A DNA stretch of 64,000 nt from assembly GCA_963848295.1 (NCBI GenBank), contig CAWKDB010000011.1, forward strand, positions 320,001-384,000. The letters are read 5' to 3'. The position numbers were made by a program, and so were the translations under genes. The notes below the pieces were generated by a model, which was not told the origin of the DNA, searched no databases, and saw nothing but the letters and a program-made list of their open reading frames with translations. This DNA is from an uncultured delta proteobacterium (GTDB taxonomy: Bacteria; Myxococcota_A; Polyangia; Haliangiales; Haliangiaceae). This document shows, one piece after another, positions 2,390 through 18,933 of this stretch. The first letter of the stretch is position 1; each line of letters starts with the position of its first letter.

Positions 2390-3214
2390 TCAGTCCGGTT
2401 TCGTAGGAGCGCCGGCGAATCGCGCCGGTCGATTCGCTTTGAACGCTGCGTGCGCTTCTGCAAAGTCGCCGTGCTGCATGCACAACGCCTGCGCTTGGGC
2501 CTCGGCCTCGATCGCATCGCCGAGCGCCATCGCGTGCTCGCTCTCGAGCATCTGCTTGGTCATCGCATGCGCGAACGCCGGCCCGGCCGCGAGCTGATCC
2601 GCCCACTGCCGGGCGAGCGCGACCGCTGCGTCTGCATCGTCGACCACCCGGTTGACGAACCCGATGCGCAACGCGTGCGCCGCGTCGATCACCTCACCGA
2701 ACATCAGCAACTCGGTCGCGTGGCCGAGGCCGACGATCCGCGGGAGCAAGTACGTCACGCCCATGTCGGCGCCGGACAACCCGACTTTCGGGAAGATGAA
2801 GCCGAACTGCGCGGCCGCCGCCGCGATCCGCAGATCGCACGCGCACGCGATCACCGCGCCGGCTCCAACCGCGACGCCGTTGATCGCCGCGATCACCGGT
2901 CGGCGACAGCGTCGGATCGCCGCGATCAGTCGACCGGTTGCACGCGTGAACGCGAGCAGCTCGGGCGTCGAGCGTCCCAACAGGTGATGGATGATGTCGT
3001 CCTGATCGCCACCCGAGCAGAACCCGCGCCCGGCCCCGGTCACGATCACCGCGCGCACGTCATCCACGCGATCGAGCTGTTCGAACGTCTCGGCGAGCTC
3101 GCGATAGCTCTCGAACGTGAGCGCGTTGAGCCGCTTGGGCCGATCGAGCGTGATCAGAGCGACGCCCGCGGCGAGCTCGAGCTTGAACGTCGCGGGCGCG
3201 GGCAGCGTGCTCAT
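2390..3214 (-). CDS. Enoyl-CoA hydratase/isomerase family protein
   Basis: LDRPKRLNAL, GFCSGGD, PVIAAINGVAVGAG, CDLRIA crotonase motifs. Confidence 0.93.
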   Translation of the reverse strand: MSTLPAPATFKLELAAGVALITLDRPKRLNALTFESYRELAETFEQLDRVDDVRAVIVTGAGRGFCSGGDQDDIIHHLLGRSTPELLAFTRATGRLIAAIRRCRRPVIAAINGVAVGAGAVIACACDLRIAAAAAQFGFIFPKVGLSGADMGVTYLLPRIVGLGHATELLMFGEVIDAAHALRIGFVNRVVDDADAAVALARQWADQLAAGPAFAHAMTKQMLESEHAMALGDAIEAEAQAQALCMQHGDFAEAHAAFKANRPARFAGAPTKPD

Positions 3215-3612
3215 TCTTCGTGCTCCAGGTACGCGACCACTTGGATCTCGACGAGCGCCTCGGGCTCGACCAGCGCGGTCACGCCGACCAGTGCCATCGC
3301 GGGGAAGTACGTGCCCAGCCGCTCGCGCCAGACCGCGCCAATGGCTTTGCGCGCGGCGCGATACGCGGCGATGTCGGTGACGTAGACCGTCATCGCCGCG
3401 ATGTCCGTCGGATGCGCGTGCACCGCCCGGAGCACCGCGAGCACGTTATCGAGCGTCTGCGCGAACTGCCCGACCAGGTCCGTGGCGACGAACACTTGCT
3501 GCGCGTTCCACCCGATCTGTCCGGCGACGTGCAGCACCTTACCGTGGCCGATCCGGCCATCGGCGTAGCCCTTCGGCGTGACACCTTCGAGCAACACCAG
3601 CTCCGTGCTCAT
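3211..3612 (-). CDS. RidA/YjgF family protein
   Basis: PKGYADG, VAGQIG, FPAMALVGVTALVEPEALVEI; start MSTEL overlaps the SDR stop. Confidence 0.9.
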   Translation of the reverse strand: MSTELVLLEGVTPKGYADGRIGHGKVLHVAGQIGWNAQQVFVATDLVGQFAQTLDNVLAVLRAVHAHPTDIAAMTVYVTDIAAYRAARKAIGAVWRERLGTYFPAMALVGVTALVEPEALVEIQVVAYLEHEE

Positions 3613-4373
3613 TTCAGGATCGCTCCTCCATCGATGACGATGGTCTGGCCGTGGATGCCGCGCGCGCCGTGCTCGCACAACGAGACGACCGCGTGCGCGA
3701 CCTCATCGGGCTCGATCATGCGCTTCTGCGGGCTCATCGCCTCGAGCGTGGCCCGCGCGTCTGCGACGCTGCGCTTGGTCTTCTCCGCGATCCGCGCGAC
3801 CGCATCGCCGGCGAGCTGCGTGTCGACCCACCCCGGGCACACCGCGTTGATCGTCACGCCGGTGCGCGCGAGCTCGATCGCGAGCGCACGAGTCATCCCG
3901 ACCAACGCGTGCTTTGCGGCGCAGTACGCGGTCGAATAGGCGTAGCCCGAGACACCGGCGTTCGAGGCGATGTTGATGATCCGGCCCCACTTGGCCGCGG
4001 TCATCGCCGGCGCGAGCGCCCGAATCAACCGGAACGGCGCGGTCGCATCGAGCTCGAGGATGCGATCCCAGATCGCATCGGTCGTGCGATCGAGCGCCGC
4101 GCTCTCCGCGATCCCCGCGTTGTTGACGAGGATGTCGACGCGACCGTGCGCGGCGAGCTCGGCGACGAGCCGATCGGTCGCCCGCCGATCGCCGAGATCG
4201 GCGACGAGCGCGACGCCCCCGACCGCGTTCGCGACCGCCTGCAAGTCAGCCGAGCCGCGCCCACACACGACAGCCTTCGCACCCGCCGCCGCCAGCGCGC
4301 GCGCACACGCGGCGCCGATGCCTCGGCCACCACCGGTGACGAGCGCTAGCCTACCAGCGAGCGGCGGACTCAC
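3609..4373 (-). CDS. Short-chain dehydrogenase/reductase
   Basis: TGGGRGIG, NNAG, YCAAK (YxxxK), NAVCPG. Confidence 0.94.
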   Translation of the reverse strand: MSPPLAGRLALVTGGGRGIGAACARALAAAGAKAVVCGRGSADLQAVANAVGGVALVADLGDRRATDRLVAELAAHGRVDILVNNAGIAESAALDRTTDAIWDRILELDATAPFRLIRALAPAMTAAKWGRIINIASNAGVSGYAYSTAYCAAKHALVGMTRALAIELARTGVTINAVCPGWVDTQLAGDAVARIAEKTKRSVADARATLEAMSPQKRMIEPDEVAHAVVSLCEHGARGIHGQTIVIDGGAILK

Positions 4374-4385
4374 GCCCGGGGCATA

Positions 4386-5207
4386 TCACGGCGGCGCTGG
4401 CTTGAGGGCGAGCATGATGCCGGTCCACCCGTAGAGGTTCTCGTTCGTCGTCGTCACCGTCTGATCGGCGACCGGACCCGCGGTCGATTGCGCGAGCGAG
4501 CCGGCGAGGAAGTTCTCCGACATCGTGATATCGGAGAGGACGTTGTAGATCGTGGTGAACCCCGCGGGCCCGCTCTGCGTGCTCGGACCGGTGACATCGG
4601 CGTCGTTGTTATCGCCGTACAAGAGCACGATCAGATCGCCATCGGAGGTCGTGGTTAACCCTGGAACGTCTTGCAGCTGTGGCGTGAGATCGATCGTGCA
4701 GGCATCGGTCTCGTTCGTCGTACCGGCGACACCGATCGCGTCGAACGGCGTATTCGGATCGACGCCTCGAAACGAGATGATCGTGGCGTTGCAGTACCCG
4801 CTGCACGTCGCTTGCGGCGCCGGCATCATGCTCAGGTCGGCCGCGAACAGCATGTACACCGCCGACCCCGAGCTCGCGCATTTCGGGTCGGTCCATGGCG
4901 CGACGACCGGTGTCCAGCTCCCGAACACCGGACCGATCCACGATCCGAGATTCTCCGCCCACGTCGCGTGCATCACCATCAGGTCGCCATCGATCGTGCC
5001 GGCGGGAACCGCCACCGCGAGCGACGCGTTCGAGGTGTTGATCCAGCTCGTGTACGCGCCGGCGGCGACGACCGCGATCGCGCCGGAGCTCGCATCCGGC
5101 GATCTGCCGTCACTACCCGGACCCCCGTCGCCGCCCGCCGAACCGAGCGCGAAGTCGATCCGTCCGCACGCGCAGAGTGCGAGCAATGCTAGTCGCGAAC
5201 CGCCCAC
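4386..5207 (-). CDS. Secreted lipoprotein-like hypothetical protein
   Basis: GTG at 5207; hydrophobic signal ending LCAC-GRIDF, G/D-rich linker, T/S-rich beta domain. Confidence 0.7.
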   Translation of the reverse strand: MGGSRLALLALCACGRIDFALGSAGGDGGPGSDGRSPDASSGAIAVVAAGAYTSWINTSNASLAVAVPAGTIDGDLMVMHATWAENLGSWIGPVFGSWTPVVAPWTDPKCASSGSAVYMLFAADLSMMPAPQATCSGYCNATIISFRGVDPNTPFDAIGVAGTTNETDACTIDLTPQLQDVPGLTTTSDGDLIVLLYGDNNDADVTGPSTQSGPAGFTTIYNVLSDITMSENFLAGSLAQSTAGPVADQTVTTTNENLYGWTGIMLALKPAPP

Positions 5208-9646: not shown

Positions 9647-11009
<1,363 letters not shown>

Positions 11010-11011
11010 AG

Positions 11012-11230
11012 CTATACCTTTCTCGACGAGCTTCGCGCGCTCGCCGCGTCGCACACGTTGCGGATCCAGTCCGAGAGTCCGAGCCCTGCCGCCTTCGCAG
11101 CTCGCTCGTACGCCGCGCGTTCGCGGTCGGTCGCGCGTAGCCCGATGATCGCGGTTGGACGGTCCGCGCGCAGCGGTCGGCCGATTCGCGGAGCCTTGCT
11201 CGACTTCGTTCGCGCTCGCACTGTGACCAT
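11012..11230 (-). CDS. Small ribbon-helix-helix-like DNA-binding protein
   Basis: IIGLRATDRERAAYERAAKAAGLGLSDWIR fits an RHH (MobC/CopG-like) pattern. Confidence 0.65.
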   Translation of the reverse strand: MVTVRARTKSSKAPRIGRPLRADRPTAIIGLRATDRERAAYERAAKAAGLGLSDWIRNVCDAASARSSSRKV

Positions 11231-11269
11231 CTTGCTGTTTCCGTTTAACGAATGCAAGTGCCCTCCGAA

Positions 11270-11785
11270 TTACCAAACGCGCTCGCGTAGTTTCGGCTCA
11301 GGCCCGTACCGCGTCGGCTCGTGCAGATCCGATCTCGCCACGCCGAGCCGCGCACCGGGCAACGCTCGTTTGACGCGCCGAAACGCCTTCGCCTCGATTT
11401 GGCGGATCCTTTCGCGAGTCACGTTGAGGCGCTCTCCGACCTCTTCGAGCGTGACCGCACCGCGATCGGCGATATCGAGCGAACACGAGCCCCATCGCTG
11501 AATTTGCTCGGCGAGCGCATCGGCGGCGGCTTCGAGATCGGCTTCCGATGGATCGGCCGGCACGTCGTGCGTGCCGATGGTGAGACCACCACGGAACCCG
11601 ACGTCGACGGAGAACATGTGGTGACGACACGAAATGAATGGGCATCCCGAGGCGGGACGCTTGCCGTGCAGAGGATCGCAGTCACCACGCGTTCGTGGTC
11701 GGTGCGGCTGCGCGTCACTCGTGCTCGTAAAGTCGGCGACCGGATCTGTGTTCGCGAGCACCGCGAGAGCTGCGACACGCTTCAT
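11270..11785 (-). CDS. Sigma70 region-4 HTH domain protein with Cys/His-rich N-terminal region
   Basis: TLEEVGERLNVTRERIRQIEAKAFRR is a region 4.2 signature; RPRTRGDC...CPFISCRHH. Start uncertain (11785 or 11857). Confidence 0.8.
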   Translation of the reverse strand: MKRVAALAVLANTDPVADFTSTSDAQPHRPRTRGDCDPLHGKRPASGCPFISCRHHMFSVDVGFRGGLTIGTHDVPADPSEADLEAAADALAEQIQRWGSCSLDIADRGAVTLEEVGERLNVTRERIRQIEAKAFRRVKRALPGARLGVARSDLHEPTRYGPEPKLRERVW

Positions 11786-11822
11786 CGCGAGCGCCTCAGC
11801 TTCACTAGCGCCGTGGCACTCG

Positions 11823-12086
11823 TCATCGTCCGTGCTCGCGTAGGACGTCGTCGACAACCTTCGCGAGCGGTTGACGCCGGTCTCGCTTCAGCGACCTGGC
11901 GACCTGACGGCGGATCCACTCCCCCAGCGACAGCGGTTTCCCGTTGGCGCCCCTCGCCGCACTCGCGCGCCGTTTCCAGTCCCTGAACGTCGCGTCGTCG
12001 AGCCAGATCCCCGCGTTGTTACGCGCGCGCTCCGCGGCGGGCTTCGCGGGTCTGCCCGGATCTCCGAATGTTGGTCGTCGTGACAT
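11823..12086 (-). CDS. Small RHH-like hypothetical regulator
   Basis: GRPAK...GIWLDDATFRDWKRRA...SLGEWIRRQV; GGAG SD upstream. Confidence 0.55.
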   Translation of the reverse strand: MSRRPTFGDPGRPAKPAAERARNNAGIWLDDATFRDWKRRASAARGANGKPLSLGEWIRRQVARSLKRDRRQPLAKVVDDVLREHGR

Positions 12087-13565: not shown

Positions 13566-15116
13566 TCACGGTGTCACTGCCTTCCAATTGCCGCCGTGGA
13601 TCCGCGTGATCCGCCCCGCGGTCTCTAGCCGAATAGCGGCAGCGTCGACCCTGGCGGGACGGACCCCAGTACCTCGCTTGTCCTTCACGCGGCCGATCGC
13701 GGCGTCGCGAAGATCGCGGCTACCGATCCCGATGTCGGGCGACGCCGCCACGACCGCGAGCACGATCGGATCGAGAAGCGCCGACTCCTGCGATGCGCGC
13801 GCGTTCTGGAGCGAGCCCGCGCGCTCGTGCCGGACGTACTTGCGGCCTTCGTCGTCGGCGCCAAAGCGGCGCACGATCACGAACGGCTCGACGTCAATCT
13901 CGTGGTTCGACTCGACGCTAACGACGACTTGGTGCTCGCTCGGACCACGCTCGATGCCGACCGCGTGACGCGTTGTGGCCCCGATCAAGCTCGATCCGCG
14001 AGCCCGCTGAAGCACGCCGGTGCCGGTCGCCGGCGCGTCGCCCGTCCCCTTGCGGAAGTGGTGCACGATTGGGATTGCCGTCGACGTTTCGAGCGAAAGA
14101 TCGCGCCACCGATTCATAATCGGCGCCATCCGCTCGACGCTGTTCTCGTCGGCGTTGTGGACCGTCGACAGCGAGTCGATCGCGCAGATGTCGTAGTCGC
14201 CGAGCTGCGACTTGAGCCGGGCAACGTGGCTCGGATCGTCGAGGTACAGGGCGCTCGTCGCGTCGATGTCGAGATGGTCGGCGAGTTCCCATAGCTCGAT
14301 GGTCGCGCCGCGGGCGAGCTGATGTAGCCGTCGCCGGGTCGTGCGGACCGAGTCTTCGCGCAGAAAGAGCAACACGCGACAACGCCGGTTCAGCCTCACG
14401 CCACACCACTCCTTGCGGCCGGCCGCGAGGTGCAGCATGAGATCCTCGACGAGGAACGTCTTCCCGACCTTCGGATCGCCGATAAACAAGCTCGGTTCGC
14501 CGCGGACGATCAGACCGTGCGCCTCGAACACGTCAGCCGGATTGTCGTCGGGCTCGTCGCCCACAAACTCGATGAAGGGTCGGCCGTAGCGCGGCGCCCC
14601 GTCGCTGCGTTTCAAGACCTCGCGGTAGCGTTCGTTGAACTGCTCGATCTGTCGAATCGCGTCGGCGCTGTACTCGTCCGGATCGTCGTCGCCGCGAGCA
14701 GCACAGCGAGCGATCTGATCGAGGATGATCGACAACCCGCGCTTGTACGCGGCATCTCGAACGATCGCGACGTACGCGACGACGTTGTCCGCGGTCGGGA
14801 CGCGGAGCGCCAGTTCACCGAGGAACGCGATACCCCCGACCGCGTCGAGCTTGCCGGCCCTCTCGATCTCGGCTTCGAGCGTAACGACGTCGATCGGGGC
14901 GCCGGCCGCTTCGAGGTTCCGCATCCCAGCGAACACGATCCGGTGTTGCGGCGCGTAGAAATCGCTCGGCTCCAACTGTGGCAGCGACGCGAGCTGGGCG
15001 TTGTCGAGGATAACGCCGCCGAGGATCGATGCTTCGGCGTCGAGGTTGTGCGGCAGCGACGTCGCGATCGCGCGCACCGACTGAGCGCGGCCGTTGTTAT
15101 GTGCGATCGAATTCAT
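13566..15116 (-). CDS. Replication protein: DnaB N-terminal domain fused to a RepA-like (AAA_25) helicase
   Basis: LPHNLDAEASILGG...DFYAPQHRIVF...PIDVVTL (DnaB-N); Walker A GDPKVGKT; IDSLS; IVHHFRK; ARGSS. Confidence 0.88.
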   Translation of the reverse strand: MNSIAHNNGRAQSVRAIATSLPHNLDAEASILGGVILDNAQLASLPQLEPSDFYAPQHRIVFAGMRNLEAAGAPIDVVTLEAEIERAGKLDAVGGIAFLGELALRVPTADNVVAYVAIVRDAAYKRGLSIILDQIARCAARGDDDPDEYSADAIRQIEQFNERYREVLKRSDGAPRYGRPFIEFVGDEPDDNPADVFEAHGLIVRGEPSLFIGDPKVGKTFLVEDLMLHLAAGRKEWCGVRLNRRCRVLLFLREDSVRTTRRRLHQLARGATIELWELADHLDIDATSALYLDDPSHVARLKSQLGDYDICAIDSLSTVHNADENSVERMAPIMNRWRDLSLETSTAIPIVHHFRKGTGDAPATGTGVLQRARGSSLIGATTRHAVGIERGPSEHQVVVSVESNHEIDVEPFVIVRRFGADDEGRKYVRHERAGSLQNARASQESALLDPIVLAVVAASPDIGIGSRDLRDAAIGRVKDKRGTGVRPARVDAAAIRLETAGRITRIHGGNWKAVTP

Positions 15117-15304: not shown

Positions 15305-15615
15305 CGGCCGCGACCCCGATTCGTCGGCGACGACAGCGGCTGCGCGCCGAGCAAGACTGCCTCGATCATCGAGACCCTTCCGAGCCAGCCGCGTCCGACC
15401 TTGCGAAGCGCGCCCGCACCGACCAGCGACGGAATGAGATCGGTGAGCCAGATCCGGCGCGTCGTACCGGGAACCGCTTCGACGAGCGTCGCGACGGTCC
15501 AGCGCCGCACGGGGTCACTCGGCGCCACTGTTGCCGCACGAGGTCCGCGCGATGTCACCGGCTCCGCACCAACCGGCGCGGTCGATTCGTCGACGACACG
15601 AAGCGGCGTGATCAT
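15301..15615 (-). CDS. Hypothetical protein (element)
   Basis: 4-nt overlaps with both neighbours. Confidence 0.55.
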   Translation of the reverse strand: MITPLRVVDESTAPVGAEPVTSRGPRAATVAPSDPVRRWTVATLVEAVPGTTRRIWLTDLIPSLVGAGALRKVGRGWLGRVSMIEAVLLGAQPLSSPTNRGRGR

Positions 15616-15938
15616 GACGCCCGCCGTGGATCGGGATCCGCCATCGAGTGACCGGCTATGTTGCGTACCGGCCGCGCAGCGCTGATCGGGATGATCGGCG
15701 TCGCATCAGGTTCGCGCTCGTCGCCGATGTGACGCCGCGCCATCCACGCTCGCAGCTCGGCGATCTTGAAGCGTACGAGTCTCGGACCGAGACGATAGTG
15801 CGGGATGGTGCCGCGCGACACCCAAGCGCGCACGGTCCCGACGCGTACACCGAGCAGCCGGGCCGCGCCTTCGTAGTCGATCGGTTCCGCCGTGATGTCG
15901 TCGTGCGATGGCGGCGTCGTCGTTCGGTGATCTCGCAT
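15612..15938 (-). CDS. Excisionase-like HTH DNA-binding protein
   Basis: IDYEGAARLLGVRVGTVRAWVSRGTIPHYRLGPRLVRF (HTH_17 pattern). Confidence 0.85.
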   Translation of the reverse strand: MRDHRTTTPPSHDDITAEPIDYEGAARLLGVRVGTVRAWVSRGTIPHYRLGPRLVRFKIAELRAWMARRHIGDEREPDATPIIPISAARPVRNIAGHSMADPDPRRAS

Positions 15939-17013: not shown

Positions 17014-17754
17014 ATGCCGGGCCCGTTGCTTCCGAAAGCGCCCATCGACGAGGTGGTGTTCGGCTTCATACTCAGCACGCCGCTCGGCCCCGATGCGGTG
17101 GACGCGGGTCGCTACTTCGCGGACCGCCGGGACCGGTTCACGAAGCATGAAATCAAAGAGCCGATCCTTTCGGAGCCGGGCTGGGTCGAATCACCGGGCC
17201 CGGTGCGCGTGTGGCTTTCGTCGGAGGACGAGAGTTGGCTTGTGCAGCTGCAACAGGACCGCTTCCACGCAAACTGGCGTCGGAGGGGCGAAGCCGTCTA
17301 CCCTGGTTTCACGCGCGCCGGCGGGGCAATGCATTTCGCTCTCGATGAATTCCGGCGTTTCCAGGATTTCTGCGAGCGACTACGTGGCGAACGACCGACG
17401 GTAGCGGCGATCGATGTGTCGAAGATCGACGTGCTGGTCCAGGCGCGCCACTGGGATGACCTCGCCGATGCACTGCACCTCGTCCCCAGCCTCCGTGCGA
17501 TCTCCGAGATTACAACCGCGCCGACACCGGTCATGTCGCTCGGCTACCAGGAGTCGCTCAACGGCATGACGGTTTCCGTCTCGATCATGCCTGCCAAAAC
17601 AAAGGCCCCACCGTCGGTGTCCGCGTTCAGGTTAGAATTTCGGGCGGCCCAACCCGCAGGCGACGACCTGGAGGCGCAGTTTGTGGCGATGAACGTTGTG
17701 CTGAACGAAGCGTTTGTGCGCGCCGTACCCAATCACGAGACGAGGTTCTCGTGA
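17014..17754 (+). CDS. TIGR04255-like family protein
   Basis: KAPIDEVVFG, RVWLSSEDESWLVQLQQDRFHANWR, YPGF, typical of this family as recalled. Confidence 0.78.
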   Translation: MPGPLLPKAPIDEVVFGFILSTPLGPDAVDAGRYFADRRDRFTKHEIKEPILSEPGWVESPGPVRVWLSSEDESWLVQLQQDRFHANWRRRGEAVYPGFTRAGGAMHFALDEFRRFQDFCERLRGERPTVAAIDVSKIDVLVQARHWDDLADALHLVPSLRAISEITTAPTPVMSLGYQESLNGMTVSVSIMPAKTKAPPSVSAFRLEFRAAQPAGDDLEAQFVAMNVVLNEAFVRAVPNHETRFS

Positions 17755-18254
17755 GCTTCGACGGGAGTTCCAGTTCGTCGACGGTGGACGATGTCGTTGA
17801 AGCGATTCCGATCGGCCGTCCGCGTTCGCCGATGGTTCGGCGGCGCGCGACGCAGAAGCAGGACGCGACCACGGGGGACGGCAATCTCCACCGTGGGACC
17901 GTAGATGCCGGCGAGGGGTCAGGACTCGACAGTGTCGAGATGACGGCGAAGCCGTTCGTCGTCGAAGGCGATCTGCGAGCGTTCGTTCGATGGGTCGAGC
18001 AACGCAAGCTGACCTTCATCGTCAACTACGTCGCTGAAATTCTTCGAGAGATTCTTCACTCGTCGGTCGTGACAGCCAGCCTCGATACAGAGCCCGACGA
18101 TCCCGAGGTAAGCCGGGTGATGCTCGTCGCTACGGTGCGCGTGGACGACGAGCAGGCGCTAGACCACCTGTTCGGCTTCACCGGTATGCCGTGGTGGCTG
18201 GGCATCGTTCGCTCGACGCGGAATGCAGTCGTAGTCGACATCCAACGCGGGTAG
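17751..18254 (+). CDS. Hypothetical protein, candidate antitoxin partner of the HEPN gene
   Basis: Overlaps the upstream gene (GTGA); disordered N-half, C-domain ...DDPE...ALDHLFGF..PWW. Confidence 0.6.
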   Translation: MSFDGSSSSSTVDDVVEAIPIGRPRSPMVRRRATQKQDATTGDGNLHRGTVDAGEGSGLDSVEMTAKPFVVEGDLRAFVRWVEQRKLTFIVNYVAEILREILHSSVVTASLDTEPDDPEVSRVMLVATVRVDDEQALDHLFGFTGMPWWLGIVRSTRNAVVVDIQRG

Positions 18255-18259
18255 CAGCC

Positions 18260-18655
18260 GTGAACGATTGGGCCGGCTTTCTCGCGCTTGCCAAGACACT
18301 CGCGCAAGCCCTTCCAGCGGAGGGCGCCAGCCTTCGTTCAGCGATCTCGCGCGCCTACTACTCGGCGTACAATGACGCGAGGCAATACCTTCGCTCGAAG
18401 GACTTGAACTACAACCTGTCGAGAAACGACTCACAGCACGAGAAGGTGTGGACCTGGTTCTCGTCTCAGTATGGGAGGGTGACCCAAGTCGCGACGCTCG
18501 GCGAGGCGCTGCGTAAGAAGCGGAACAACGCAGACTACGAATCAACGTTTCCGAATCTCAAGTACGAGGCAGGTGACAGCGTGCAGAAGGCCCAGCGGAT
18601 CCTCGTGCTGCTCGCCGACGCGCGCACGCCGCCTGTGCGTCCACCGTCGCGATAG
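18260..18655 (+). CDS. HEPN domain protein (UPF0332-like)
   Basis: SAISRAYYSAY, QH, LRKKRNNADY motifs. Confidence 0.85.
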   Translation: MNDWAGFLALAKTLAQALPAEGASLRSAISRAYYSAYNDARQYLRSKDLNYNLSRNDSQHEKVWTWFSSQYGRVTQVATLGEALRKKRNNADYESTFPNLKYEAGDSVQKAQRILVLLADARTPPVRPPSR

Positions 18656-18909
18656 CTTCGACATCGGTCCCTTGGCGCTCGGTTGGCAGGGTCCACCGAT
18701 CGCGCGCTCCTACGCGAAGCTATGAGGCGACCGCGGCCGACGATCCTGGGGTCCACTGGGGGTACAGCTGAACGTGCACGAAGCGAATCGAGCGATCGCG
18801 AGCGTTATCGATTGTCTCTATCGCTTCGCGTGAATCCTCGACGGAGAATCGTGGTTTTCGGGAGCTTCGTCCGCGATCTCGCTCGCTTGCTCGTCGACCG
18901 CTGAAACCC

Positions 18910-18933
18910 GTTCAAGTCCCGACGGGGTCACCA
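18910..18933 (+). repeat. attR: displaced original tRNA-Glu 3' end including CCA
   Basis: GTTCAAGTCCCGACGGGGTCACCA. Confidence 0.95.

Follow-up and report, generated by a model that had tools for sequence, protein, structure and literature searches.

The described systems closest to the locus analyzed here are the tripartite toxin-antitoxin-chaperone (TAC) modules, the HEPN-MNT type VII toxin-antitoxin (TA) pairs and one validated defence system with the same gene order. In TAC, a SecB-like chaperone binds a disordered segment of the antitoxin, the ChAD, which is C-terminal and dependent on aromatic residues, and phage proteins compete for the chaperone (Mets et al., bioRxiv 10.1101/2024.02.24.581848). 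In HepT/MntA, a GS-x10-DxD motif is needed for AMPylation (PMC13000451). DS-42 (PRO1), of the DefensePredictor study, is a validated E. coli system in which two hypothetical proteins of 238 and 190 aa are followed by an MBL hydrolase, and Table S4 of that study, as far as it was accessible, holds at least eight TIGR04255 genes as predicted novel defence genes (PMC13092281). Given these entries, the idea of defence for the TIGR04255 family is thus not wholly new.

Our analysis considered a window of 64,000 nucleotides, in which three genes lie in tandem on the forward strand. Gene A (17014-17754) encodes a probable, divergent TIGR04255-family protein of 246 aa, a candidate control unit (scaffold or sensor); gene B (17751-18254) encodes 167 aa, with a disordered N-tail and an alpha/beta C-domain predicted, and is a candidate antitoxin; and gene C (18260-18655) encodes a HEPN-T/UPF0332-type protein of 131 aa, a candidate RNase toxin. 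Genes A and B overlap by 4 nt, B and C are separated by 5 nt, and the GC content of the three ORFs is 75-77% at the third codon position vs 45-47% at the second, a coding pattern. An alternative start for gene C at 18191 was dropped, as the homologues begin at the 18260 codon. A search for promoter and terminator patterns gave none.

The cassette sits in a 9.2-kb element flanked by an identical 22-nt repeat. The integration site is a tRNA-Glu(CTC) gene (9647-9719, forward strand), whose last 22 nt form attL (9698-9719), while attR (18910-18931, forward strand), a copy of this tRNA 3' end, lies 255 nt past gene C. The element core is encoded on the reverse strand and comprises a tyrosine integrase (9681-11276 as the longest ORF, the real start being probably further in), an adjoining small protein that combines a Cys/His-rich segment with a sigma-70 region-4 domain (11270-11857), a replication protein with DnaB_N and AAA_25 domains (13566-15116) and an excisionase-type HTH_17 protein (15612-15938). 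A first-pass annotation of this DNA had reported three coupled genes opposite in strand to the core and close to attR, and the ORFs, junctions and att distance bear this out. It had also treated the carrier as a satellite. Of the features by which PICI/P4-like satellites are recognized, the integrase, replication module and att sites are present, but none of the 10 core ORFs scanned had a capsid or terminase family as its best match and no packaging or packaging-hijack gene was identified among them, so we limit the name to satellite-like integrative element. GC content is 62.5% in the cassette, 66.8% in the element core and 68.2% in the whole window. A second repeat, 85% identical, lies inside both element ends (9772-9797 and 18741-18766), 53 nt from attL and 143 nt from attR, and possibly represents integrase arm sites.

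Like the TAC modules HigBAC and CmdTAC, this arrangement has three genes, a constant component that accompanies varied TA pairs, a disordered antitoxin extension (here a predicted one) and a mobile location. However, the genes here run lead, antitoxin, toxin, in contrast to the toxin-antitoxin-chaperone order of TAC; the antitoxin has an N-terminal, Ser/Thr-rich tail where that of TAC is C-terminal and aromatic; the lead, a TIGR04255 protein of 246 aa, is at most a putative relative of SecB; and the effector is a HEPN protein. With its inverted order, its tail at the opposite end of the antitoxin and almost no aromatic residues in that tail, the cassette falls outside the SecB TAC family as defined. 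With HepT/MntA, the cassette shares a small alpha/beta partner immediately followed by a HEPN gene and a Tyr right after the motif, but gene B has no GS-x10-DxD and is extended by a long tail, the operon starts with a third gene, and gene C has RxxADY. DS-42 has the same three-gene order and the same 4-nt first overlap, and differs in its effector, a HEPN protein here and an MBL hydrolase there.

Judged by its profile scores, gene A is probably a divergent member of TIGR04255 (NCBIfam), to our knowledge a family without assigned function. It scores 23 bits (E 5.8e-5) against the family profile, under the 30-bit cut-off, and relatives at 31-36% identity (L016, L017) score above that cut-off; the Atlas clusters nearest to it also carry this name. 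We found 31 relatives at 43-66% identity, and the gene A profile matches 5049 clusters (50% identity clusters). The structure model (pLDDT 95, pTM 0.91) has a beta-sheet fold of two strand-(helix)-three strands-helix repeats, and the two halves align weakly but in register (P 0.013). In the wide structural search, of which we considered the best 50 rows (Z 4.1-7.5), the best were phosphagen kinases (Z 7.5, rmsd 4.4, 185 aligned), followed by McsB (Z 6.9, rmsd 5.0, 177 aligned); AdoMetDC, RepDE and TBP were also among the best rows, the curved sheets of the latter two at Z 6.0-6.2 and rmsd 4.6-6.0, and glutamine-synthetase and PafA folds ranked lower. All of these rows should be considered with the rating of the search tool in mind, by which Z < 8 is possibly just a common arrangement. 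SecB was absent among the rows listed by Foldseek and by the wide search (top 50), both of which used the whole-chain model only, and PDB sequence searches with the gene A profile and with the B-domain profile gave nothing useful.

Conservation within gene A differs with the breadth of the alignment. E13, R65, Q78, Q80, N87, W88 and Y96 are invariant in 150/150 subfamily sequences, but across the broad family (67 aligned sequences) near-invariance is confined to P10, Y96 and F234, and just 41-49 of the 67 retain the polar residues that are fixed in the subfamily. We therefore favor a scaffold over an enzyme. Complex prediction for gene A with residues 1-75 of gene B gave a median of 0.31 vs a mark of 0.32 (runs of 0.28, 0.43 and 0.31; three controls at 0.00), which speaks neither for nor against an A-B contact.

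The long disordered N-terminal part noticed earlier in the middle gene is also predicted by the structure model of gene B, in which pLDDT is 43-61 at residues 1-60 and 91-97 at residues 71-167. The predicted tail spans about residues 1-66, is Ser/Thr-rich, contains a single aromatic residue (F3) and carries a recurrent [AS]-S-T-[LVI] pattern that is also found in relatives. Residues 71-167 are modelled as helix-helix-strand-strand-helix-helix-strand, with a conserved WW motif. When compared with one canonical MNT encoded beside another HEPN gene, this C-domain gave an in-register but weak match (E 0.077), and GS-x10-DxD, the active MNT motif, is not in gene B, with a loose pattern in 1 of 21 relatives; gene B is thus unlikely to AMPylate gene C. 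Foldseek with gene B found nothing that reached E 0.001 and listed no nucleotidyltransferase among its rows, the weak rows being PrgK, OsmC/Ohr, ribosomal S3 and CDF C-domains. Domains similar to the C-domain occur in the Atlas as stand-alone proteins of 93-108 aa, and Gloeothece plasmids encode a 118-aa gene B-like partner of HEPN without gene A. The simplest reading is that gene B is a non-catalytic binding antitoxin, with the degenerate MNT fold suggested in the first-pass annotation as a candidate for its ancestry. Among 301 genomes, the gene B profile matched only its own.

The last gene had been called a HEPN protein, and its relatives confirm this. The gene C of the window has no Pfam HEPN match of its own. 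It has 24 relatives, relatives exceed the PF05168 cut-off, and the family profile finds the solved HEPN structures 9xbd (E 2e-6) and 9xbc (E 1.5e-5) and, weakly, 2hsb (E 0.05). Its motifs are SRAYY, H60 and R88-x-x-A-D-Y; RxxADY is present in 25/25 aligned sequences, with R88, D92 and Y93 invariant throughout and H60 nearly so. The canonical Rx4-6H motif is absent, as the first-pass annotation had noted in doubting nuclease activity. This doubt becomes smaller, as in HEPN-T proteins D is often found in place of H, and an H elsewhere could contribute to activity (Anantharaman 2013 Table 1, PMC3710099), which makes gene C a plausible candidate RNase. The PDB entries 9xbd and 9xbc represent a solved HEPN protein with RNRSDY and its Tyr-to-Phe counterpart, a pair from which it seems that the residue corresponding to Y93 has already been studied; the literature searched contained no paper behind these two entries.

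The trio co-occurs elsewhere, which was one of the checks proposed with the first description of these genes. At 8 of 13 metagenome loci found through gene A, A-B-C stand in order; the other five are one with a 46%-identical gene A and a different pair (L009), three distant ones with other pairs and one broken fragment. The named relatives of A and C are Kofleriaceae genes two locus tags apart. The same arrangement, with more distant partners, recurs in L018/L026 and L051, on the viral contig L102 and on a Thermus plasmid (L122), the latter being Thermus brockianus pTB1, where the trio sits between vapBC and cas6. The spread is patchy: the gene A profile matched 0/34 same-family and 10/250 same-class genomes, had no match in its scan of viral contigs and had one in that of genome contigs, on the same contig as L003. 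tRNA genes adjoin two relatives (L003, L006) among 12 loci scanned, one of these being a duplicate.

The main result of our analysis is that TIGR04255 genes generally head such trios. Among 401 sampled genomes of the phylum, 56 carry the family; of the 71 matches listed, 65 loci were fetched. Twelve of these were dropped, one by script and 11 on visual inspection, as the contig ended, the ORF was unclear or no pair was evident (e.g. L046 and L075). In 51 of the 53 kept loci, and hence in at least 51 of 65, two genes follow downstream and neither gap exceeds 20 nt; it should be noted that the second and third ORFs were picked by eye and script before counting. For the junction and cluster analysis we used 68 loci (the 53 kept and 15 others). 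In 41 of them the first junction is a 4-nt overlap. The second genes group into 27 and the third genes into 23 BLAST-unlinked clusters. Third genes above Pfam cut-offs include RES, PIN, HNH and HEPN, and larger third-gene classes that have no library match were presumptively labelled by us, from motifs, as MazF-like, ART-like, papain-like and Fic. Second genes bear HTH, HEAT, PDC-M32A-like or B-type domains. As the same lead gene precedes many different predicted toxin-antitoxin pairs, the lead protein is likely a shared control unit.

The N-ends of the second genes have a common composition. Their Ser/Thr fraction is 0.179 in the first 60 residues vs 0.112 in the last 60, being higher in 23/27 clusters (p 2e-5), and third-gene N-ends, at 0.125, have less (p 1e-4), although wrong start calls can also yield Ser/Thr-rich, low-order N-ends and this should be considered when referring to these values. 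No aromatic enrichment was found in the second-gene N-ends. Among 21 loci found through gene C, a TIGR04255 gene is present at only two, and the HEPN pair is therefore able to stand alone; the other 19 are largely one redundant prophage group, in which the partner gene has a TPR-like N-part.

We propose that the cassette works as a conserved unit of three genes, with C as the toxin, B as its block and A as a gate on this block that acts through the tail of B, probably as an anti-phage defence, a reading to which we give a probability of a little under one half. Gene C would likely be an RNA-cutting HEPN toxin, held inactive by the folded C-domain of B, and gene A would likely bind the predicted disordered N-tail of B and so decide whether the toxin stays locked. 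In this scheme, A may stabilize or shield the tail until this protection is lost to a phage protein or to a shut-off of gene expression in the host; B would then be lost, C would degrade RNA and the infection would be aborted. The operon structure, the conservation, the pair swapping, the Ser/Thr-rich N-ends and the HEPN pair that occurs without A are the computed support for this gate. Tripartite TA modules can serve element maintenance instead of defence, which counts against the defence part. The arrangement follows TAC logic in mirror order, with a constant lead, swappable pairs, pairs that are also found alone and a common tail type. The tripartite toxin-antitoxin(-chaperone) reading of the first-pass annotation is thus strengthened, in that the unit is modular and conserved, the lead heads many pairs and the HEPN pair is also found where this lead is absent, but it does not extend to SecB TAC as defined.

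A broader claim, which we hold more tentatively than the gate itself, is that TIGR04255 proteins form a widespread, unrecognized class of TA adaptors and phage sensors, separate from SecB, which captures pairs through a Ser/Thr-rich N-tail grafted onto the antitoxin. The captured pairs would comprise HEPN, RES, PIN, HNH, ART-like, MazF-like and peptidase-like toxins, and the class, with its thousands of sequence clusters, would be a mirror image of TAC. An unlikely, more modest explanation takes B-C as an ordinary type II-like pair that stabilizes the element, with B as a non-catalytic HEPN partner, possibly MNT-derived, and A as a co-transcribed regulator, e.g. a nucleic-acid-binding saddle, with no phage-sensing gate. 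The B-C-type pairs found without A, the location of the cassette in mobile elements and the resemblance of A to the curved sheets of TBP and RepDE at low scores are all consistent with it, but genes of the A family stand before many pairs that are unrelated to one another, the second genes of these pairs have Ser/Thr-rich N-ends in common, many of these second genes already bear an HTH, and the fold scores are at common-arrangement level. We consider it rather less probable still that A is a fused pair of SecB-like units and the cassette a true TAC of inverted order with an N-terminal chaperone-addiction tail. The two repeats of gene A, with halves that align weakly in register, form a fold reminiscent of the SecB dimer, and a SecB match is absent from the host genome (85% complete); gene A, however, has no Pfam SecB match, its profile halves matched three SecB sequences at E 0.15 and 0.36 and out of register in what was a shallow test, and the tail of B lacks the aromatic residues of a ChAD.

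Two further explanations place the activity differently, and to both we assign a low probability. If A were an enzyme that switches the antitoxin by modifying the tail of B, e.g. through phosphorylation or ligation, then the phosphagen kinases and McsB as best structural rows, the lower-ranking glutamine-synthetase and PafA folds, the seven residues invariant throughout the subfamily and the Ser/Thr-rich tails would all fit, but every one of these rows has Z < 8 at identities of 3-13%, and the polar residues are less well kept across the broad family. It is similarly improbable that C is catalytically dead and structural, with the active output in A or B or with a non-defence role for the unit. 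The replacement of Rx4-6H by RxxADY in all 25 sequences agrees with a dead HEPN, and an RNase assay of the D-for-H variant was not found in the literature searched, as far as its texts were accessible. Against this stand the invariant R88, D92 and Y93, the near-invariant H60, the alternative His described for HEPN-T (Anantharaman 2013 Table 1, PMC3710099) and the other toxin-type domains that occupy the third slot elsewhere.

The cassette is a real, conserved and apparently undescribed variant of tripartite toxin-antitoxin control and represents the HEPN version of a widespread TIGR04255-led trio. As had been asked of the trio at the outset, we looked for it in PADLOC, where it is not catalogued: none of the models matches gene A or B, and the best match for the three proteins of the window is that of C, at E 0.017. 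PADLOC PDC-M32A matches, with its C-part, the second genes of five other TIGR04255 loci (E 4e-9 to 4e-3), and PDC-M05B weakly matches HEPN relatives. The term TIGR04255 appears in no main text of the literature searched, which also, mostly at the level of titles and abstracts, contained no description of the trio; bioRxiv supplements and subscription papers lie outside this literature and possibly contain one. The analysis provides a testable role for a large family without known function (5049 clusters, 56/401 sampled genomes of the phylum), and it leads to the prediction that ordinary TA pairs have a second way, alongside SecB-TAC, of becoming gated immune modules. All three genes are small, the proposed steps can each be tested in E. 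coli, and the cassette also offers a test for RNase activity in the D-for-H variant of HEPN-T.

Several other arrangements were noted in the course of the analysis. The commonest trio in the phylum consists of a TIGR04255 gene, a tailed HTH protein and a protein of 250-280 aa with QG and T-[QH]-x-CD motifs that has no Pfam match (L028-L037, L039, L041, L047, L048, L050 and L053). At eight loci (L016, L043, L069, L071, L072, L074, L082 and L094) the third gene carries a conserved His and a TCATF motif; four of these genes were scanned and gave no library match, and we take the protein to be peptidase-like, an unusual effector candidate. Related arrangements are also headed by other genes. In L060:403-1923 (G490:C69), a B-type domain with a long N-extension and a HEPN gene stand behind a different lead gene of 134 aa, which does not match the gene A profile and for which the label DUF3467 found no library match; the lead slot may thus itself be swappable. 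On a viral contig, L114:2759-4420, a portal-like gene is followed by a 211-aa lead, again with no match to the gene A profile, a tailed partner and a HEPN gene. As their leads lack this match, L060 and L114 were left out of the TIGR04255 trio counts. Finally, in the prophages L105-L113 and L115-L120 (viral contigs, at about 3150-4400), a TPR-like gene of roughly 257 aa is paired with a HEPN-T gene. The four loci of this group that were scanned gave no convincing PADLOC or NCBIfam match, and the pair, which lies mostly within the tail-gene region, is a candidate two-gene defence moron.
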